Of a stretch of 64,000 nucleotides of DNA, positions 7,483 through 63,192 are shown in pieces (position 1 is the stretch's first letter; every line of letters starts with the position of its first letter). The stretch is from sequence record PV577657, one strand, 5' to 3'. Source of the DNA: Escherichia phage vB_EcoS_MM-1. Made by a program: the position numbers and the translations under genes. The notes beneath the pieces are model-generated. The model was not told the origin of the DNA. It did no database searches and saw only the letters and a program-made list of their open reading frames with translations.

Positions 7483-7511
7483 TTGCATAGTGCAAAAAAT
7501 TTCTGTATAAT
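7483..7511 (+). promoter_or_regulatory. PN25-like strong early promoter
   Basis: TTGCAT, 17 nt, TATAAT, then AGATTCATAAATTTGAGAGAGGAG, near-identical to the T5 PN25 core and downstream box; palindrome TTTGCA-tag-TGCAAA overlaps the -35. Confidence 0.75.
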
Positions 7512-7542
7512 AGATTCATAAATTTGAGAGAGGAGTTTAAAT

Positions 7543-8247
7543 ATGGCTGGTTCTCGTAGAAAGAAACATATCCATGAAATCCCGGATGAAGTCTTTAAAA
7601 AGGTTATAGAGCATCTGGAGAACGGTGGTACTAAGAAAGCAGCATGTGAAATGCTCGGCGTATCATCCAATCCAACTATGGAAAGGATGATTGAAGAATG
7701 GCAAGACCGCCAGATTCAAGTTGCCGAAATGAAGAAAAAGAAACGTGGCACACTCATTGAAGGCATTGAGTTAGCTAACGTTATTGAGCAGTATTTATCT
7801 GGTGATTCTTTTGAAGAAATTGCCGATCGTAATTACCGCTCTGTAGCAATGGTTAAATCTGTTCTGGAACGATATGGTGCTCTACTTCGTTTGAACGATA
7901 TTGTAGATCCATTGAATCCTCCAATTATTCCTGATGATGCTGTAGCAGAAGAATTTGCAGTTGGTGAGCTTGTTTGGGTTCCTGGATACCAGTGTATCGG
8001 TGAAATCAAAAAAGCAATGGATAATCCTGTTGGTTGCTACCGTGTATGGCTTCTATCCGAAGGCAAACAACAGAACGTTCATTATATGAATTACGAGCTG
8101 GCTTCTGTTAAACATCTGGAAAAGTTAGGGGTAGACGTAAAATCTCTAGGGTATAAGTGGACTCGTGAAGAAATTATTACGTTGATTAACGAAGCTGTTA
8201 AGGCTGCTCTGAAACTTGATAAAGAAAAAGGAAAACGCCGTGAGTAA
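7543..8247 (+). CDS. helix-turn-helix DNA-binding protein
   Basis: RBS GAGAGGAG; N-terminal GGTKKAACEMLGVS HTH-like segment. Confidence 0.55.
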   Translation: MAGSRRKKHIHEIPDEVFKKVIEHLENGGTKKAACEMLGVSSNPTMERMIEEWQDRQIQVAEMKKKKRGTLIEGIELANVIEQYLSGDSFEEIADRNYRSVAMVKSVLERYGALLRLNDIVDPLNPPIIPDDAVAEEFAVGELVWVPGYQCIGEIKKAMDNPVGCYRVWLLSEGKQQNVHYMNYELASVKHLEKLGVDVKSLGYKWTREEIITLINEAVKAALKLDKEKGKRRE

Positions 8248-8491
8248 GCTAACAGATTTGCTTAAGGATGGTGAAACAAAAACCGTGTATCGTAGAAGCT
8301 GGGATAATGACAATAATGGCTTAGTGTTACTAACTTTAGACGCTGACTCAGATGTAGCTACCCAACATACCTGGGTAGCTGGTAATTATCCCTATAGTGA
8401 GGTTGTTACGTTAACAGTATGCGAAGCTATTGCCGACGATTGGGAGATTGCCAGCATTGATGATATGCTTGCTGTTGGCCTGGTGGAGTAA
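8216..8491 (+). CDS. hypothetical protein (start may be GTG at 8240)
   Basis: ORF track; overlaps upstream gene. Confidence 0.5.
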   Translation: MIKKKENAVSKLTDLLKDGETKTVYRRSWDNDNNGLVLLTLDADSDVATQHTWVAGNYPYSEVVTLTVCEAIADDWEIASIDDMLAVGLVE

Positions 8492-8508
8492 CTACTGAAA
8501 AATTTCAG

Positions 8509-8537
8509 TTGCTTAATCCTATAATTCTTGATATAAT
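8509..8537 (+). promoter_or_regulatory. sigma70-type early promoter
   Basis: TTGCTT, 17 nt, TATAAT. Confidence 0.6.
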
Positions 8538-8594
8538 ATTCTCATAGTTTGAAAGAACTATTCTGTTTAATTCTTAATTAAGGAAATATAAAAT

Positions 8595-9005
8595 ATGACT
8601 ACTCCAACTCAGTGGACTGATGAACTGTTCGAAAAAATGTCTTCCGAATACGTTGCTCGTATGGAGCAATTCCCAGAGGATGAACGTCCGGGTGTTAGCA
8701 TGGAAATTGTTAGCGAAATTGCCCAGGAAAATGGTGTAACTCCGAACGGTTTTCGTATGAAGCTGACTAAAGCAGGTTTGTATATCAAGAAAGCTGCTGG
8801 CTCTGCTTCTAAATCTAGCGCATCTACTGGAGAAAAGGCTTCTGGTGGTTCTCGTACCTCCAAAGCTCAAGCTCATGCCGATCTTCGTTCAGCATTCTCT
8901 GATGCTGGCTTAGCACCGGATTTTCTGGATGATGCAATTATCGATAAACTGACCGGTAAAGCGGCTGCTCATCTGGCAGAAGCAATCCGAGCTATCACTA
9001 AGTAA
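8595..9005 (+). CDS. hypothetical protein with HeH/SAP-like motif; codon usage suggests high expression
   Basis: Motif EIAQENGVTPNGFRMKLTKAG resembles the repeats in 12003..12770; GCT/CTG-rich codon usage. Confidence 0.55.
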   Translation: MTTPTQWTDELFEKMSSEYVARMEQFPEDERPGVSMEIVSEIAQENGVTPNGFRMKLTKAGLYIKKAAGSASKSSASTGEKASGGSRTSKAQAHADLRSAFSDAGLAPDFLDDAIIDKLTGKAAAHLAEAIRAITK

Positions 9006-9041
9006 TTTTTAGATAAATCCACCAACAAAAGGAACACAGTT

Positions 9042-9338
9042 ATGACCAAAGCTGAAATTATCGCACAATGTGAAAAATTTGGTGAGTTTTATCTTCATTA
9101 CGAGAAACTTCGTCAGAAAGGAACCACGTATCTTCAGGGTACGATGGAATTTGATCCAGCCCAAGATAAATATCTAGCTGAGCGTATTAAACGTGAACGT
9201 ATTCGTAAAGCGAAAGATGATGAGATCCTTGTCTTCTCTCGTACTAATGATAGCTTCCGTTTTATTCCTGTCGAAAAAGTCCGTCGTGTGACTAGCCTCC
9301 AATCAGAGTTAGATCGTGCTTCTCCAGTAGGCCGATAA
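9042..9338 (+). CDS. hypothetical protein
   Basis: ORF track; terminator immediately downstream. Confidence 0.55.
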   Translation: MTKAEIIAQCEKFGEFYLHYEKLRQKGTTYLQGTMEFDPAQDKYLAERIKRERIRKAKDDEILVFSRTNDSFRFIPVEKVRRVTSLQSELDRASPVGR

Positions 9339-9348
9339 GAAACCAATT

Positions 9349-9371
9349 AGCCCCTATATGGGGCTTTTTGT
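9349..9371 (+). terminator. rho-independent terminator
   Basis: AGCCCC-tata-GGGGCT followed by TTTTT. Confidence 0.7.
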
Positions 9372-9388
9372 GTATTTGGGATATGTAA

Positions 9389-9697
9389 ATGAGCGAACAG
9401 GTAAATCAAAACTATGAAGGACACGTTGATGACCAGTCCATCATACTTTGGGAGAAGGAGGGAGAACAAGTAAGATTAACAGTATCTGAATTTCGTGGGA
9501 ATCTATACATGGGTATTCGTTACTGGCTTCTTGATATTAATGATGAGTGGTTTCCAACGAAATCTGGCTTCTCTTTTCCTTACACCCTAGAAACAACATC
9601 ACAGCTTTTCTATGCGTTTACACAGATTCTTAGCGAATCTGAGGTTTTACATGAAGTACAGAAACGAGCTGAAGAACTCAAAGCCAAGAATGCCTAG
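9389..9697 (+). CDS. hypothetical protein
   Basis: ORF track. Confidence 0.55.
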   Translation: MSEQVNQNYEGHVDDQSIILWEKEGEQVRLTVSEFRGNLYMGIRYWLLDINDEWFPTKSGFSFPYTLETTSQLFYAFTQILSESEVLHEVQKRAEELKAKNA

Positions 9698-9713
9698 TTC
9701 TTGGCTTTTTCTT
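9683..9713 (+). terminator. rho-independent terminator overlapping the stop codon
   Basis: GCCAAGAA-tgcctag-TTCTTGGC then TTTTT. Confidence 0.65.
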
Positions 9714-9724
9714 TATAAATGTAC

Positions 9725-9753
9725 TTGCTTTCAACTCAGTTTTGTTATATAAT
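9725..9753 (+). promoter_or_regulatory. sigma70-type early promoter
   Basis: TTGCTT, 17 nt, TATAAT, then ATTTATATAAATTAATGAGAGGG. Confidence 0.6.
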
Positions 9754-9783: not shown

Positions 9784-10056
9784 GTGAAAAAGATAAGTAT
9801 AAGTACACTTAAACCTTTCCCGTACATCGGACAGCCTCTTATACTTATGTGGGAGGAGAAGATTAATGGGGAAAAGTATACTAAAACTAGAAGTGGGTAT
9901 AAGCTGACTTCACTTCATTACGAAAAAGAAGTATTAGTAGCTGAAATATACTCTCCGTTGTCAGATAGGCTAGTAAAAACTACATATTTGCATCGTTGCA
10001 AAAATTATACATGGCACGGATCCACTAGACAACCCTCATACTGTGAGGCAGAATAA
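9784..10056 (+). CDS. hypothetical protein (GTG start)
   Basis: ORF track. Confidence 0.45.
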   Translation: MKKISISTLKPFPYIGQPLILMWEEKINGEKYTKTRSGYKLTSLHYEKEVLVAEIYSPLSDRLVKTTYLHRCKNYTWHGSTRQPSYCEAE

Positions 10057-46870: not shown

Positions 46871-48084
46871 TCTTTATCTCCCTCGGTGGAACCTTGAGGT
46901 CTACCACCTTCTTGACCAGACACACCTGTTGCAGAACCAGCAACGTTAGCAGGAATACGAATCTTATCCATCTGCTCATCATCTAAAGGTTCAAGGTTCA
47001 GCTCTAAACGAGCTTCGTTACCAGTCATAATACCATTATTAACCAATGAGGTTAAATGTTTAGCCTCAGCTTCTTTATCTGGTGTTAATGCAGCTACTTC
47101 CTTAGTATTAGGAGTAATCTTATAACCAAAAAAGAAAGTAAGAGAACTAGTCAGTTTGTTCAGCATAGGAATGATAGTCATGTAATAGAACAGTTCGATA
47201 TTTGGTCGAATGTTCGCGTTATTACCACCATCAAGTAACACTTGCGGAACACCAAAGGCTAGACAGATAGATTTATTAAATCCTTCAATGTCTTCCTTAA
47301 AGTCTAGATCTTTAAAAGAGGATATTTGGGAGTACGGTTTAGCTTTCATACCACCATCTAGAATCAGGACAGAGGACTGACCAGTACTAGGATTATAATC
47401 TAGTTGTAATTCTTCTTGTTTACGCTCACGCAATTTCTTGTTCAGGATTTCATCCGTCTCAAGAATAAGTCCAATCACGGTTCCGTTATCGAGGAATTTC
47501 TCTTTAAAGTTAAGCATCTTAGAACGCTTCTCAAGAGAATCAATAACAGTAGCAACACGAGATTGTCCAGAAATTTGAGAATTTGTGCCACACACGTAAC
47601 TGTTATCCTTTATAAAGATAATCTCATCTACGCGATAGTCTATCTGGTTATTAAATATAAATTTTTTGATAAACTTATTGGCATCTGCCTCTACTTGCAT
47701 TAATGCAGCAGGGACATGGTAAAGTGCTGTGCCATCCCAATAGATGTATGCACAACCTTCAAAAAGTAGGTCAGTGACTACAAGTCTACGGAATGTGCTT
47801 ATATCCATGAATGGATTAGGTCGTACATTTAAGAGAGTGTCTAGAGTCTTTGCCTTGATGCCATTGGCATACGTGACAATATTATATTTATCTCCGACAG
47901 TATAAGAACACTCCGCCGCACTATCTATAACCATATTAGCAGTTCTATTGAGAATCTCAATTTTACTGTAGGCTTGTCCAGTGGTAAAAGGCTTACGGTT
48001 AGTGCGATGACTAACTGGTTCCATGTCTCTTATAATACGTTGACCCGGATTTAGCTTTTCAGTAATCCAGCTTTTAAAACCCAT
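46867..48084 (-). CDS. portal protein (pb7-like)
   Basis: 405 aa, directly downstream of terminase/HNH. Confidence 0.8.
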   Translation of the reverse strand: MGFKSWITEKLNPGQRIIRDMEPVSHRTNRKPFTTGQAYSKIEILNRTANMVIDSAAECSYTVGDKYNIVTYANGIKAKTLDTLLNVRPNPFMDISTFRRLVVTDLLFEGCAYIYWDGTALYHVPAALMQVEADANKFIKKFIFNNQIDYRVDEIIFIKDNSYVCGTNSQISGQSRVATVIDSLEKRSKMLNFKEKFLDNGTVIGLILETDEILNKKLRERKQEELQLDYNPSTGQSSVLILDGGMKAKPYSQISSFKDLDFKEDIEGFNKSICLAFGVPQVLLDGGNNANIRPNIELFYYMTIIPMLNKLTSSLTFFFGYKITPNTKEVAALTPDKEAEAKHLTSLVNNGIMTGNEARLELNLEPLDDEQMDKIRIPANVAGSATGVSGQEGGRPQGSTEGDKE

Positions 48085-48521
48085 TATAAGAACCTTGCGA
48101 ATCCTGATTTTGTTTCAGTCTTGACTTGTGTCTTTTCTTGAGGATTCTGTAATTTGTCTTTCTGCTTTTGAACCCACACTTTTTGCTTATTAGCAGAAAA
48201 TAAAGGAGGTTCTTTTGTGTAAACCTTATGTAATAATTGGTGATGGTGTACACAAAGGGTAACAGTGTCTTCTACTAGCTCATGCCTATATCGATCATAG
48301 AATGCCGTCCTATTTGAAAGGACTATTTCTTCGTCAGTGAAATCCAATTGGAGTTCTTTAGCAAATTTTTTAACTAGTAGAGACACCGTATGGTAATGAT
48401 GAAGCTCTAATTCTTCAGCACAACCGCAGATAGCACATTGAGAGTCTTTTTTATATTGACTTTTTATTCCGTCTCTCATAAGGGATATAGCATCGCGTTT
48501 ATATTTTATATTGCTTGCCAT
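48084..48521 (-). CDS. HNH endonuclease inserted between terminase and portal genes
   Basis: CAICGCAEELELHHYH...CVHHHQLLHK; start taken at MASNIK with GGAGAA RBS (track start 48608). Confidence 0.7.
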   Translation of the reverse strand: MASNIKYKRDAISLMRDGIKSQYKKDSQCAICGCAEELELHHYHTVSLLVKKFAKELQLDFTDEEIVLSNRTAFYDRYRHELVEDTVTLCVHHHQLLHKVYTKEPPLFSANKQKVWVQKQKDKLQNPQEKTQVKTETKSGFARFL

Positions 48522-48635
48522 AGTGTTCTCCTCAACTGTATGAATATAGTATACATAATCGTATCGAATTTGTAAAGGGGATTTTAAAATGCAGGAATGG
48601 GATACCAACTGAGTAGTATCCCTTCCTATACTTAT

Positions 48636-49952
48636 TTATTTACCACGGGAAATAGAGTAAATTCCATAGCGCAGAGCATCACAGAGGTGAGAGTTAGCAT
48701 CATGACGTGGTTTTTCACGTGATAATTTTTCTTCACCTTCTTGGAAATCCCACTTGTAATTCTGCAATGCGTGAATTAATGAGGAACATGAAGCATCCAC
48801 AATAATCTTGCCTTGTTGGAATAGTGCTTGTAAACATGCTAATCCATCTAGGACAGATTTTTTAGCTGGAGCCGATGCAATTTCATGTTCATAAGCTAAG
48901 TCCTGACGGAACTGAGCTGCGGCAGAGTCAACAAAAACACGATCAACTTTATAACGATCTATACAGTGCTGAATGTAAGCCGCATGCTGAGCTGTGGTTT
49001 TCTCCGCCTGCTGGTACTCTTCTAATACATAGTAGGTATCTGTATCATAGTGGTACTTAATAGTAAGAACTGCTGTAGGATCACGATAACCAACGTCAAT
49101 ACCAAGCAACGTTTCGAATGCTTCATCATCTTTAAAGAAGTGACGCATACCTTTAAGGTCTTTAACATGGTCTATAGCATTAAAGGTATCAAAGATCTGA
49201 CCTTCGAATACAGAGAAGTCAGCCTCATATTCCTGACGAAAGTAGTTTTTACTAACTGTACGACGTGCTTCTTCGATATCATTCAGATCAGCACGTGGGT
49301 TATCACGATACGTACCATGAATAGATACCCAGTTAGGTAATGTATCATCAAATCCATAGGCATAAAACTCTTTAAACCAGTTACCACCACGAGGAGTAGA
49401 GATAAATAGAGCCTTAGAGTTTGGTTTATCTAGGGTAGGACGCAACTGAACTCTAAAGGCATCACCACCCACATCGGAAATTGCCGCCTCATCAAAGATG
49501 ATAAAGTCATATGAACGCCCAACTGCGGAGTCAGCCTGCGCCGCAGAAGCTAGTTTAAACAGAGAACCATTAGCTAACTCAATCTCTTTATCTTTAGCAT
49601 TCTCACGTTCGGTTTGTAGGCCATATTTTTTAATAAGACCACGAATCTGAGACCATCCGATGTTGGCCAGTGAGTAGTTAGGAGCAACTACTAGCACCTT
49701 TACGTTAGGCTCCAGCAACTTTAGAAACCCAAGTGTGTATGCGATGAAGGATTTACCTACACGGCGTGATACACACGCCGTTACAAAACGATGTCTAGGG
49801 TCTTCTAGCGCATTGATAATCGCTATTTGAGGACCATTAGGTGTAATACCCTCTTGAGCTAGTATTCCTGAAACAGGTAGACGAAAGAAACGTTTGTCTA
49901 TTCCGAAATCAATAACATCAACTGTGTTAACGTAGGGTCTTGATACTTCCAT
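48636..49952 (-). CDS. terminase large subunit
   Basis: 438 aa; Walker A-like CVSRRVGKS; C-terminal nuclease-like region. Confidence 0.85.
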   Translation of the reverse strand: MEVSRPYVNTVDVIDFGIDKRFFRLPVSGILAQEGITPNGPQIAIINALEDPRHRFVTACVSRRVGKSFIAYTLGFLKLLEPNVKVLVVAPNYSLANIGWSQIRGLIKKYGLQTERENAKDKEIELANGSLFKLASAAQADSAVGRSYDFIIFDEAAISDVGGDAFRVQLRPTLDKPNSKALFISTPRGGNWFKEFYAYGFDDTLPNWVSIHGTYRDNPRADLNDIEEARRTVSKNYFRQEYEADFSVFEGQIFDTFNAIDHVKDLKGMRHFFKDDEAFETLLGIDVGYRDPTAVLTIKYHYDTDTYYVLEEYQQAEKTTAQHAAYIQHCIDRYKVDRVFVDSAAAQFRQDLAYEHEIASAPAKKSVLDGLACLQALFQQGKIIVDASCSSLIHALQNYKWDFQEGEEKLSREKPRHDANSHLCDALRYGIYSISRGK

Positions 49953-50434
49953 TACTTCTTACCTCCAGTAGCTAGGGAAGTAATTAAGTCCATGTAGTTT
50001 TGATCCCCAGCTCCAGCAATAATATTATTCTGGATATTGGTCTGATTAGCAGGAGCACGGACGGCAGCTTTAGCTTTTTCTAGCTCCACCATCATTTTCA
50101 TCTCTTCCATCTTCATTTTATGTGCCTTCCAGAGAATATCCATAATATCCTGGTCAGAACCCATGCCAGTTTCTTCCAGTTCCTCCAGCTTACGTTTAAT
50201 AACTTCATCTAGAACACCGAACAAACGATCTCTGTTACGGAATCCACTCTCCATAAAAATATCGTTCAAGTAATTCTTAACTTCACTACGATTCATAATA
50301 TCTCGGAAAGCAATTTCAGACATTCCAAGACTACGTGCGGCAGAAGGCACATCGCTACCGCACTGTAAATAAGCTTCAATCACATCCATCCCTTCAGGGG
50401 ACATAAGATCTGGTACTAATATATCATTTGCCAT
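49952..50434 (-). CDS. terminase small subunit candidate (HTH)
   Basis: 160 aa immediately upstream of the large subunit; HTH-like [17 protein letters not shown]. Confidence 0.5.
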
Positions 50435-50444
50435 ATTTCCTCCT

Positions 50445-52202
50445 TTAGGTAAGGCGTTGAACTGTTACTCTTAATCTAGGTAGAAAAACTGCACTACCTA
50501 AACTTACGTGCATAACTACCCCTAACTCTACATTTCCATTCCCCAGATTTTTAGCAGTATATATAAAACTATTTCTACTTAGGGCATTGTTAGGTGTGTA
50601 TCTAAAAGCAGATGTAGTATGAAAAGGTACTAAATACCCTACTGGTAATGTTAAAATCTGGTGGAATATCGCGTCACCATTACTATAACTATATGCTCTT
50701 CTTCCTTGCACCTGAAACACACCGTTATTCCATGTATTAGCAGGGACACCTGCACAGTTAAGATTACCTGATATAACTTCAGTGGTAAGAATTACTGTAG
50801 CATTGCCACCCGGTATACCTAGCCCAATAGTTGATAAACCAACGTATCTATCTCCTGTTCCTGGGTAGCTGGGGGTAATATCATCTCCCATATAAGAACT
50901 ACCTACATTTCCACCAAAAAGTCGTAATGGAACTGCTGATGGTCCCCAAACAACCCCGTGTTCATTACCGATAGTATTATCATTAGAGTTTACGTACCAT
51001 TGCTTACCAGCTCCGAATTTGTAAATACTAATTTGAGACTTAGCCCCTCCATAGTCCACAGGAGACCATAAACTCCCGTTACTAGAACCTACAAGTTCAC
51101 ACCTTGCGGTGGTATCCCCAAAGGCCCCAGTATATGCTGCATTATTTCCAATATATTCCATATCTGGTCTATAACCTAAGTTACCGAAAGCGTTCTGGTT
51201 AATAAACTTGTATCCAGTATTGGGAAGACTAACCCCTTTAATTATGAAATTAGAAGGAGATATAAGAATATCTGAACCAGTAAAAGGATTACCAGAGATA
51301 CTCATACCACCATTTGAGTATCTTAAATTCAAAACGTACCAAATAACTTTAGTAGGAGTTATGTTATACCAATCTTGTAGTATTGTAGAATCACCAGATT
51401 GATTAGCTAAATTAGTTGTAGAACCCCTACAAACAAACCTATTACCCCCATCATGATACATAGTATTTACATTACCAGGAAGACCTTGTCTTACCCCACC
51501 ATACCCACGTATGTTAGAGTTACAAACATAGAACCAATCGTGCCCTCTGTGTGCTGATCCTAAAGGAGACATCCATCCTGGGTCCCAGTAATTTTGGTTA
51601 TTCCCATCTATAGGTACTGTACTACTATTAGTAGGGAATCCTAACTGTGCAAAAGCTTCTGCAACAGTAACCCCTACTGGAGCTCCTGCACCTGGCCTAA
51701 CTATACCATGATACGTACTATGTAGGGTAGTTCCACCAGTACCATTCCTAGAAATAGATTCTTCATGCCCTATAGATGGATTATAGTTATATGTACCAGA
51801 TGCCAGGCTATTACCAAATGCAAATCCACTAGTCTGGGAAACACTAGCAAAAGATCTAAAAGGATCTGCTTGAGTGGCAACTATAGTTTGACCCACCTTA
51901 CTCTGAGTACCATTAAGAAAAGCTCTGTGAGTACCATTAATCTCAATAGCAGTTAATATAACTCTACCAGGATCGTTAGATTTAATATTTATTATGTCAG
52001 AGGGCATCTGACATACAAAAAACCCATTTCCGGCATTTCCTAACCCAGCCTCATAAGTACCATCAACTAGGACAAATGGCATATCACTATGAAAAATACT
52101 ATTGGCATTTGGACTATAGTGACGATTAATGTCACCACCAGATTCAGTATTTAAAGATAGTACGGTCTTACCATCGCTATATTTTCCAGCGAAAAAACCC
52201 AT
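50445..52202 (-). CDS. receptor-binding tail protein (pb5/Oad-like)
   Basis: 585 aa, Gly/Asn-rich, divergently adjacent to the llp-like lipoprotein as in T5. Confidence 0.6.
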
Positions 52203-52227
52203 ATAATCTCCTATTATAAAAATGTAT

Positions 52228-52256
52228 TTGCTTTCATCCCTCTATTTTGCTATAAT
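52228..52256 (+). promoter_or_regulatory. PN25-like early promoter driving llp
   Basis: TTGCTT, 17 nt, TATAAT, then AGATTCATAAATTAGAAATGGAGAG. Confidence 0.65.
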
Positions 52257-52287
52257 AGATTCATAAATTAGAAATGGAGAGATAAAT

Positions 52288-52554
52288 ATGAAAAAGTTTG
52301 TGATTGCACTAGTTGCCGCAGTTATGTTATCTGGTTGTGCACCTGCTCCCAAACCATTTTGTACTGGATTTGTAAAATCTTTTGGTGGTGCGGGAGAAGA
52401 ACATTACGGCCTCAAGGTTCAAAAAGTTCGTATTAAGGGAGATCGCTTCCCAGTAGTACAGCTCCGTACTAAGTTTGGATGGTGGGATCTCAGTCAGTTT
52501 GACCTTAAATATGGTGATTGTAAATTTAAACTAGAGCAATCTAACTACATGTAA
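52288..52554 (+). CDS. llp: lytic-conversion lipoprotein (Llp-like), receptor-blocking superinfection exclusion
   Basis: Signal peptide with lipobox LSGC; small size; divergent from the receptor-binding gene. Confidence 0.7.
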   Translation: MKKFVIALVAAVMLSGCAPAPKPFCTGFVKSFGGAGEEHYGLKVQKVRIKGDRFPVVQLRTKFGWWDLSQFDLKYGDCKFKLEQSNYM

Positions 52555-52731
52555 TTAGTATAAAGCAAAAAGACATCTAAGTAAACTAAATTTTTTATTT
52601 TTTGGATGGTATATTGGCAGAAACCACTATGTAAGAAAATGAGAAGTCCTTCTAGGAAGTCACAAGCATGGTTGGTTATATACAAATTATAAAATATTTT
52701 AAAATACCATACTCATAGGAGCAAGAAAGAT

Positions 52732-52860
52732 ATGTCAAATAAAAGAAAGAACAGACGCGGAGAAGTGTACGAAGCGTGGATTAATATTTACGGATTTGGT
52801 TTTGTATTATTCCTAATCTTCGTAGGTTTTTGGTTAGCAGCTATGGCGGGGTGGATTTAA
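52732..52860 (+). CDS. small basic protein with one C-terminal transmembrane helix (42 aa)
   Basis: RBS AGGAGCAAGAAAG then ATG; MSNKRKNRRGEVYEAWINIYGFGFVLFLIFVGFWLAAMAGWI. Confidence 0.45.
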   Translation: MSNKRKNRRGEVYEAWINIYGFGFVLFLIFVGFWLAAMAGWI

Positions 52861-53015
52861 TGGAATGGGTAATTATTGGCATATTCGTCTTATTGATACT
52901 TCTCTTTGTAGGCTTACGTGTAATAGATACCTCTGTAACCCAAACAGAAATTAAATTAATGCAGTTGAGTAATAGATTATCTAGAATTGAAACTTTATTA
53001 GAGGAGCGTAAATAA
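52860..53015 (+). CDS. small single-pass membrane protein, paralog 1 (51 aa)
   Basis: ATG overlaps previous stop (TAATGG); MEWVIIGIFVLLILLF...RIETLLEERK. Confidence 0.5.
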   Translation: MEWVIIGIFVLLILLFVGLRVIDTSVTQTEIKLMQLSNRLSRIETLLEERK

Positions 53016-53122
53016 TGGAATGGGTAATTATTGCACTACTGGGGATTGTGATTATTGGGCAATGTATTTTAGATAATTATTTAGCTAGAATTGAAACCTT
53101 ACTATCGGAGAAACGTAAATGA
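53015..53122 (+). CDS. small single-pass membrane protein, paralog 2 (35 aa)
   Basis: ATG overlaps previous stop; MEWVIIALLGIVIIGQ...RIETLLSEKRK. Confidence 0.45.
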   Translation: MEWVIIALLGIVIIGQCILDNYLARIETLLSEKRK

Positions 53123-53313
53123 TGGAAGTGGGAATTACACTAATAGTAATATTAGTCTGGGTAATCCTCATTGTCTCTCGTATAGTGTATCTCCGCCTAA
53201 AAACTCTAGAAGCTCAGGTGAAACAACAACAAGTTATTCTAGAAAAGTTAGTACTACTGCAACGTTGTGATAGCACCCGTATTCTGCAAATTGAGAGGGA
53301 ATTAGATGTTTAG
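53119..53313 (+). CDS. small single-pass membrane protein, paralog 3 (64 aa)
   Basis: ATGA overlap with previous gene; MMEVGITLIVILVWVILIV then amphipathic helix. Confidence 0.5.
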   Translation: MMEVGITLIVILVWVILIVSRIVYLRLKTLEAQVKQQQVILEKLVLLQRCDSTRILQIERELDV

Positions 53314-53551
53314 TATTGTAATTGCTTTTATTATCGGGATACTTGCGGGAGTTTTCGGGACAACTGCGGCAATCAACAAGCATCGTAAATATATTGCGGA
53401 AGTATCGCGGGAGATTGCGGAAAGGGAGCGGAAGTTTGACGAGAAACGTGCGGAGTTTGAGCGGGAGTGGTCGGACGGATCTCGGGCGTCGCGGAAGAGA
53501 TTCCGTGAGTTCAGACCAGAACACAGGTTTGATGACCATTCTATGCGCTAA
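53306..53551 (+). CDS. small membrane protein with Arg/Glu-rich C-terminal tail (81 aa)
   Basis: 8-nt overlap with previous gene; N-terminal TM helix MFSIVIAFIIGILAGVFGTTAA. Confidence 0.5.
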   Translation: MFSIVIAFIIGILAGVFGTTAAINKHRKYIAEVSREIAERERKFDEKRAEFEREWSDGSRASRKRFREFRPEHRFDDHSMR

Positions 53552-53716
53552 TTTGACTTTTGCCAAATTTCATAAGATTACACATGGAGGTGTGTCCAGT
53601 GGGTCGGGGGAGAATACTTAGTCTGCTAACCGCCACCCCCCGTTACTATTATCATGGTAATTGTTTCACCCTGCAATTAAAATGGTTGCAGGGTGAAACA
53701 ATTTCAACTTTAATTA

Positions 53717-54493
53717 TTACGCAACTTTTAATTTCTCGATATATTGTTGCGGGCTGCAACTATATTCTGCGCGTTCTTCCTCGGTCATACCTTCCCAACA
53801 TAATTTCAAACGATCAGCTAGGAATTGATAATCATTATCATCATCGAGGGATTCATCAATAAAGGTTTCACCTATCAATGCCACGCCGATTGATAGAATA
53901 TCGTTAACGGCTTGCGCGTCCAGCGTTTTAAATCCGTATGATGCCGCCGCTGATAGTACACCCTTATGATCATCAATCATTGTAAAATCAGCGTTCGGAT
54001 ATAACTGTTTAAATAATTCAAAATAATAAGATTTATAAACTGCGTCTTTGCTGTGGTATATCTCGCTAACTTTATCAGCCTCAAAATATTTATGCAGTGT
54101 ATCGCGAGAAAACACGCGGATATTACTATCACCACGACCGCGCAAGCCTTGTTTGCGCAAATAATAATAGTCCGACTTGCTCATTAGTCGAGCGGTACAA
54201 ATAATGTTTAAAGTATTTGCGTCATTCATGCACTGGCGCATATATGTAACAAGGGGCAATAAAGTATCTTGCATTATTAAATCATGTTTGCAGGCTTCAT
54301 TTTTATACTTATTTAAATCTAAATTGCCCTCGCTATCAAAGCAAGGCGCTACACGATGGAAAGAATTAATGATAGTGCCGTCCAGATCCCAAATCATGAC
54401 GCGGGAAATATGCGGGAAATTACGGGTAATATTCATTTTAACTTGATTCATTTTGTTACGTTCTCCATTAAAGGGATTTAGTTTATCCAGCAT
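53717..54493 (-). CDS. dmp: HAD-family 5'-deoxyribonucleotidase-like protein (Dmp-like)
   Basis: HAD motif I MIWDLDGTIINS; first gene of the pre-early-like block. Confidence 0.65.
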   Translation of the reverse strand: MLDKLNPFNGERNKMNQVKMNITRNFPHISRVMIWDLDGTIINSFHRVAPCFDSEGNLDLNKYKNEACKHDLIMQDTLLPLVTYMRQCMNDANTLNIICTARLMSKSDYYYLRKQGLRGRGDSNIRVFSRDTLHKYFEADKVSEIYHSKDAVYKSYYFELFKQLYPNADFTMIDDHKGVLSAAASYGFKTLDAQAVNDILSIGVALIGETFIDESLDDDNDYQFLADRLKLCWEGMTEEERAEYSCSPQQYIEKLKVA

Positions 54494-63001: not shown

Positions 63002-63192
63002 GCGCCCGCGATGGTTAGCCTGCTAATGATTAGGGTGTTACGTGTCGCCTTGTGTGATCGTTAGCGAGCTAACTAATTTTCAAGCCTCCTCCAATTTTGC
63101 CCTTGTTTTAGTATCTCCACCAAAATTAAACGCGTTAGAATGCGATCTAGGACGTTTTAACGCTATATTAGAATTATTCACTGCGTAGGAAT

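Follow-up and report, generated by a model that had tools for sequence, protein, structure and literature searches.

The window, by which we mean the whole stretch of DNA that was analysed, comprises 64,000 nt of Escherichia phage vB_EcoS_MM-1 (PV577657). Between positions 50445 and 52554, the gene for a receptor-binding protein (RBP) lies back to back with llp, the gene for a small lipoprotein. An earlier note, made from the sequence alone, had reported a 585-aa ORF and a divergent ORF at 52288..52554 in an arrangement like that of T5 llp/oad; both ORFs were recovered at these positions, with the gene order, divergence and promoter type of T5. The features of the locus, in window coordinates, are as follows.

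48636..49952, minus strand: terL (PHROG/Pfam matches)
49952..50434, minus strand: terS (PHROG match)
50440..52650: receptor-binding/receptor-blocking cassette, approximate limits from sliding nucleotide identity against BF23, DT57C, SPC35 and T5
50445..52202, minus strand: RBP gene (pb5/Hrs family, BtuB subgroup), 585-aa ORF with ATG start
52203-52287: divergent intergenic region between the RBP gene and llp, 85 bp
52208..52212, minus strand: Shine–Dalgarno sequence AGGAG of the RBP gene, 5 nt from the ATG, read directly from the sequence
52228..52256, plus strand: promoter of llp, T5 early sigma-70 class (PN25 family), from exact pattern and alignments
52276..52281, plus strand: Shine–Dalgarno sequence GGAGAG of llp, 6 nt from the ATG, from the sequence
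52288..52554, plus strand: llp, 88-aa ORF with ATG start
52288..52335, plus strand: predicted signal peptide of Llp, residues 1-16, MKKFVIALVAAVMLSG, ending in the lipobox residues L-S-G and followed by Cys17 (Pfam LPAM_1, lipobox rule)
52336..52554, plus strand: mature Llp, 72 aa, and stop codon

The RBP gene is the first gene of a late operon that continues through terS and terL, all on the minus strand, and its position directly upstream of terS/terL is the same in T5, BF23 and DT57C. The divergent pairing of llp with the RBP gene is likewise found in T5, BF23, DT57C, SPC35 and phiR2-01. The published primer BF23Llp42-F (PMC4728585) contains a match to the Shine–Dalgarno sequence of llp.

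The promoter of llp

The llp promoter consists of a -35 hexamer TTGCTT (52228-52233), a 17-nt spacer and a -10 hexamer TATAAT (52251-52256), with a TG at 52248-52249 forming an extended -10 element (TGcTATAAT). The pattern TTGCTT-N17-TATAAT occurs three times in the window, compared with an expectation of 0.05 from shuffled sequences. The llp promoter escaped a generic sigma-70 scan only because TTGCTT matches TTGACA at 3/6 positions; the exact-pattern search and the alignments show that the promoter is real and conserved.

The PN25 70-mer is present without mismatch in T5 at 63048-63117, where it is annotated 'promoter P-N 25' and precedes the early gene D2. The llp promoter and PN25 have in common the -35 hexamer, an A-rich upstream stretch and an identical 19-mer, TATAATAGATTCATAAATT, which runs from the -10 into the transcribed region, and an ungapped comparison gave 45 identical positions out of 67. 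The PN25-like promoter previously proposed at 52228-52256 was exact in position, and its 19-mer is that of PN25. The discriminator, AGATT, is also the same as in PN25, and the consensus discriminator of T5 early promoters is ATATT (PMC7472727). BF23 and DT57C have the same promoter 5' of their llp genes, and T5 has a looser form of it. T5 llp is described as 'expressed early' (Decker 1994, as quoted in a citing paper), and by analogy the llp gene of the window would be transcribed early.

Orthologues of the classical T5 early promoters were found at 7483-9753, and the llp promoter belongs to the same small family. The PN25 orthologue (7483-7524, plus strand; -35 TTGCAT at 7483-7488, -10 at 7506-7511) carries a 19-mer identical to that of PN25 and precedes ORF 7543..8247, the D2 homologue. 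A PN26-like TTGCTT-17-TATAAT (8509-8537, plus strand) precedes ORF 8595..9005, and a further copy of this pattern (9725-9753, plus strand) precedes ORF 9784..10056. On the minus strand of the intergenic region, a TATTAT at 52257-52252, about 45 nt upstream of the RBP start, overlaps the llp -10 (52251-52256), and overlapping divergent promoters are annotated at the same place in T5. Because the two elements overlap, we speculate that early transcription of llp and late transcription of the RBP gene might compete for the same DNA.

The receptor-binding protein, the lipoprotein and the mosaic cassette

The 585-aa protein had been described as being of the receptor-binding type, and the profile and structure-database searches agree. 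It is a full-length member of phrog_4815 (residues 1-585, E 6.7e-275) and matched the T5 pb5 chains 8b14_B and 8a8c_B of the PDB (E 2e-50), as well as T5 pb5 by BLASTP (E 2e-55). No Pfam family was found for the RBP or terS, and no NCBIfam match for the RBP. The protein is identical to that of EC148 at 585/585 residues and to that of DaisyDussoix/Bas31 at 583/585 (99.7%), and the identity to the RBP of Citrobacter phage Cit2 is 97%. Among BtuB binders, the identity is 74% to SPC35, 73% to DT57C, 67-69% to BF23 Hrs and 56% to phiR2-01; outside this group, it falls to about 29% for T5 pb5 (FhuA) and 28% for H8 (FepA). By sequence, the RBP groups with the RBPs of BtuB-requiring phages and not with the FhuA or FepA clusters. 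The difference in length between the RBP and T5 pb5 (585 versus 640 aa) is accounted for in the alignment by shorter loops, and the shortening includes most of the segment aligned to loop L4 of T5 pb5 (residues 570-590), one of the four loops that pb5 inserts into FhuA (PMC9586334).

The N-terminus of Llp, MKKFVIALVAAVMLSGC, had been read as a lipoprotein signal peptide with the lipobox LSGC. This reading was supported by two approaches: Llp exceeds the gathering score of Pfam LPAM_1 (23.9 versus 20 bits, E 5e-5), and it conforms to a lipobox rule in the style of PROSITE PS51257, as do all 12 family sequences and T5 Llp. LPAM_1 was the sole Pfam match of Llp, and no NCBIfam match was found. 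The family is narrow, with just 11 clusters in a protein database search; the lipobox and Cys17 are invariant in 11/11 of these homologue clusters, and from the sequence we would expect Cys17 to be lipidated. Under the Lol sorting rule, lipoproteins that have no Asp at position +2 are directed to the outer membrane. The +2 residue of Llp is Ala, and A, V or T occupies this position in the homologues, never Asp; because of this Ala, Llp should sort to the outer membrane. Two further cysteines, Cys25 and Cys78, are invariant in the family and align with Cys26 and Cys73 of T5 Llp, in which a disulphide (C11-C58) is reported to be essential (preprint 10.64898/2026.03.26.714494).

Llp is identical to BF23 Llp at 87/88 residues, the C-terminal residue being Met instead of the Leu of BF23. 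BF23 Llp is a published BtuB blocker, and the earlier description of the small ORF as Llp-like holds. The identity is 98% to DT57C, 98% to SPC35, 51% to phiR2-01 and 28% to T5 Llp. The phrog_1119 (Cor/Llp) profile matched both the full length (E 1.8e-26) and the mature part (E 2.6e-16) of Llp, and T5 Llp matched the same profile (full length E 1.1e-19, mature part E 1.4e-11). In the alignment with the pb5/Llp pairs of T5 and BF23 that the earlier note had proposed, the RBP and Llp both fall in the BF23 type.

Over the 2.5-kb region, nucleotide identity is 100% to vB_EcoS_MM-2 (PV577658) and 99.8% to DaisyDussoix/Bas31 (MZ501058). A sliding nucleotide identity profile along 49952-53600 against BF23, DT57C, SPC35 and T5 gave the following values.

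terS: 93-97% against BF23, DT57C and SPC35; 91-95% against T5
RBP gene interior: 47-99%, mosaic, against BF23, DT57C and SPC35; 32-54% against T5
llp and its promoter, 52202-52651: 93-100% against BF23, DT57C and SPC35; 32-57% against T5
downstream of about 52650: 78-83% against BF23, DT57C and SPC35; 78% against T5

The flanks of the cassette are thus 78-97% identical at the nucleotide level to the T5-like phages compared, T5 included, whereas the interior is 32-57% identical to T5. At the protein level, residues 1-80 and 321-400 of the RBP are 98-100% identical to SPC35, whereas residues 161-280 share 42-62% identity with SPC35 and 28-55% with BF23. Conservation of Llp is 96-100%, and the RBPs that accompany it are 67-74% identical. 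Judged from these sequences, the exchangeable module is one of a nearly invariant blocker and recombining binders. A module that combines receptor binding with receptor blocking and is exchanged between phages has been described (Golomidova 2016, PMC4728585; Mondigler 2006, as cited in later papers), and it has been recognised before and carries this annotation in many genomes.

Of the known systems, BF23 hrs/llp (OR083247) has the same gene order, divergence, promoter, ribosome-binding site and receptor group (BtuB). The BF23 RBP is 595 aa long, compared with 585 aa here, and is 67% identical, with the greatest divergence of the window RBP from Hrs at residues 161-280 and near the C-terminus. 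Bas31, MM-2 and EC148 have essentially the same sequence as the window (99.8-100% nucleotide identity over 2.5 kb), differing by one or two amino acid substitutions only. The rbp/llp pair of DT57C (Golomidova et al. 2016, PMC4728585) combines an Llp of 98% identity with an RBP of 73% identity that has a different mosaic pattern. The T5 pair oad (pb5)/llp differs in its receptor, FhuA rather than BtuB, and in an RBP that exceeds the window RBP by 55 aa and has longer loops, L4 among them. Structures have been solved for the T5 proteins: 8A8C and 8B14 for FhuA-pb5 and 8A60 for FhuA-Llp.

Assignment of the receptor

We consider it highly probable that the locus is a BF23-type host-recognition module of Tequintavirus, in which the RBP binds BtuB and the early-expressed Llp blocks BtuB. 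The dependence on BtuB and the blocking of the receptor are drawn from the literature on identical or near-identical proteins, and the choice of BtuB follows from the work on BF23 and DT57C, from the listing of Bas31 and from the cluster membership of the RBP. The receptor of BF23 is BtuB, which is in turn blocked by BF23 Llp (Mondigler 2006, cited in PMC10644984 and PMC4728585; the results are relayed also in PMC8624392). For DT57C, cloned llp inhibited DT57C and BF23 and did not inhibit T5, resistant hosts carried btuB lesions, and BtuB was confirmed as the receptor by btuB mutations; expression of BF23 Llp or DT57C Llp is reported to make cells resistant to BtuB phages (PMC4728585). The terminal receptor of Bas31 is listed as BtuB (BASEL S5 Table), and the cluster to which an RBP belongs reportedly predicts the receptor. 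The analogy to T5 llp/oad, drawn in the earlier note with the receptor left uncertain, therefore stands as regards the type of module and fails as regards the T5/FhuA type, as sequence and literature point to BF23/BtuB.

The strongly mosaic RBP raises the question of whether the two halves of the module could have come apart, with Llp still blocking BtuB and the RBP having changed to a different TonB-dependent transporter, for example FepA, or gained one in addition. The divergence of residues 161-280 (28-62% to other BtuB binders), set beside the near-identity of residues 1-80 and 321-400 to SPC35, would allow such a change, and published work places a recombination point between hrs and llp (PMC4728585). 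However, the nearly identical RBP of Bas31 is listed as BtuB-dependent, and none of the BASEL isolates, which were all assayed by spotting on receptor knock-outs, showed a phenotype when fepA was missing. The DT57C RBP is equally divergent and still uses BtuB (PMC4728585), and the window RBP is only 28% identical to that of H8. Furthermore, about 100 phages in the database pair exactly this type of RBP with a BF23-type llp, which argues for a selected, matched pair. We regard a switch of receptor as very improbable.

A module of the T5 type, with FhuA bound by the RBP and blocked by the lipoprotein, is less probable again. Gene order, divergence and promoter type are as in T5 oad/llp, the window Llp and T5 Llp both belong to phrog_1119, and a published study assigns FhuA to phage Cit2 (PMC12980165), the RBP of which is so close to that of the window. 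Nevertheless, the RBP and Llp are 29% and 28% identical to T5 pb5 and T5 Llp, whereas Llp shares 99% identity with the BtuB blocker of BF23; Bas31, with an RBP of 99.7% identity, is listed as BtuB-dependent, and DT57C-type Llp gives no protection against T5 (PMC4728585).

The assignment of Cit2 itself rests on a stated identity of 96.9% between the Cit2 and T5 RBPs, from which FhuA was inferred (PMC12980165). This value was not reproduced against NC_005859: the Cit2 RBP (OP745948, 12561-14318) was 30% identical to T5 pb5 and 97% identical to the window RBP (50445-52202). The identities of the Cit2 RBP given in the same paper, 72% to SPC35, 67% to BF23 and 73% to DT57C, fit the BtuB group. On these sequence comparisons, FhuA was probably inferred for Cit2 in error, and the 'decoupling' of RBP and Llp that PMC12980165 discusses probably does not exist.

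Least probable of all, to the point of being negligible, is that the small lipoprotein is another phage outer-membrane lipoprotein, for example an o-spanin (Rz1-like) component of lysis, and no receptor blocker: o-spanins typically share its small size, signal-peptidase-II signal and outer-membrane sorting signal, and neither Pfam nor NCBIfam gave a functional family, but llp adjoins the RBP gene, no i-spanin or lysis cassette lies around or beside it, the promoter is early and not late, the protein is 99% identical to one reported to block BtuB, and it matches the Cor/Llp PHROG with E 1.8e-26.

With the BF23-type module as the preferred reading, the phage should be annotated as BtuB-dependent, and the 88-aa gene as encoding the cognate receptor-blocking (superinfection exclusion) lipoprotein. 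For the design of phage cocktails, cross-resistance through loss of btuB would be expected, and co-infecting BtuB phages would be excluded. The comparison also advises caution where FhuA has been assigned to this type of RBP, as in at least one publication.

Possible mechanism of receptor blocking, and neighbouring regions

We propose that the RBP, which sits on the tip of the straight central fibre of the tail, would bind the vitamin-B12 transporter BtuB and so commit the phage to ejecting its DNA. Shortly after most of the genome has entered, llp would be transcribed by the host sigma-70 RNA polymerase from its strong PN25-family promoter, and the product, to judge by its signals, would be exported, lipidated at Cys17 and sorted to the outer membrane. 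There Llp would bind BtuB and make it unusable by the RBP. The blocking of BtuB would result in superinfection exclusion, and would prevent progeny from being wasted on the debris of lysed cells.

By analogy with T5 Llp-FhuA, Llp most likely acts at the periplasmic face and plug of BtuB, closing the extracellular loops allosterically. T5 Llp sits at the periplasmic face of FhuA, where it binds a non-native conformation of the plug and causes EL7 and EL8 to fold inward over the pb5 site (PMC9586334); it is from this complex that we infer the periplasmic 'jamming' of BtuB.

Older papers called the Llp proteins of BF23 and T5 non-homologous (PMC10644984, PMC4728585). Our comparison provides evidence for a distant homology, because both proteins match phrog_1119, also without the signal peptide, and three cysteines align. 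We lean slightly towards regarding BF23-type Llp as truly homologous to T5 Llp/Cor, though highly diverged; on this view it would inactivate BtuB from the periplasm by jamming its plug, in a 'reverse allostery' like that of FhuA-Llp. Because Llp is 96-100% conserved and the RBPs are mosaic (67-74%), a single Llp would shut BtuB to many RBPs that bind it differently. If plug-jamming is indeed shared, Llp would be a general tool for closing BtuB, and E colicins and vitamin B12 would probably be shut out as well.

The Cor lipoproteins of T1, phi80, HK022 and N15 belong to the same phrog_1119 and are small outer-membrane lipoproteins that inactivate a TonB-dependent transporter. They differ from the window Llp in that they target FhuA, that their genes follow gpJ-like tail-tip genes in the genomes of small siphoviruses or of prophages, and that sequence identity is very low; a match of Llp in BFVD was to a Cor-like protein of phage CEC_Kaz_2018 (E 2.5e-3).

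No intrinsic terminator was found after llp, and the RNA of 52540-52740 folds like shuffled sequence (z 0.05). Because no terminator follows it, llp is probably read through into small downstream ORFs for membrane proteins. Five very small ORFs follow llp on the plus strand at 52732-53551 (42, 51, 35, 64 and 81 aa in the MM-2 annotation). They correspond to T5.159-162, annotated in T5 as single-transmembrane-domain proteins, and may be co-transcribed with llp. One of the small ORFs in this stretch, at 52860..53015, comes in addition to those of T5 and DT57C; over the region 52802-53101, identity to BF23, DT57C, SPC35 and T5 is only 31-55%.

A 46-aa ORF with a TTG start (52545-52685, minus strand) overlaps the 3' end of llp. 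It is annotated as a hypothetical protein in MM-2 and is unannotated in Bas31, BF23, DT57C and T5, and is probably a gene-caller artefact.

At the other side of the cassette, an ORF with an HNH motif (48084-48608, minus strand) lies between portal and terL; its homologue is annotated as the nicking endonuclease in BF23 and as T5.153 in T5. The endonuclease gene T5.154, which in T5 lies between T5.153 and terL, is absent from the corresponding interval of the window (48522-48635). By colinearity with MM-2, the right terminal repeat begins near 53594 and carries the pre-early region, with dmp (53717..54493), A1 and A2, and the end of the window lies about 108 nt past the end of the MM-2 record.
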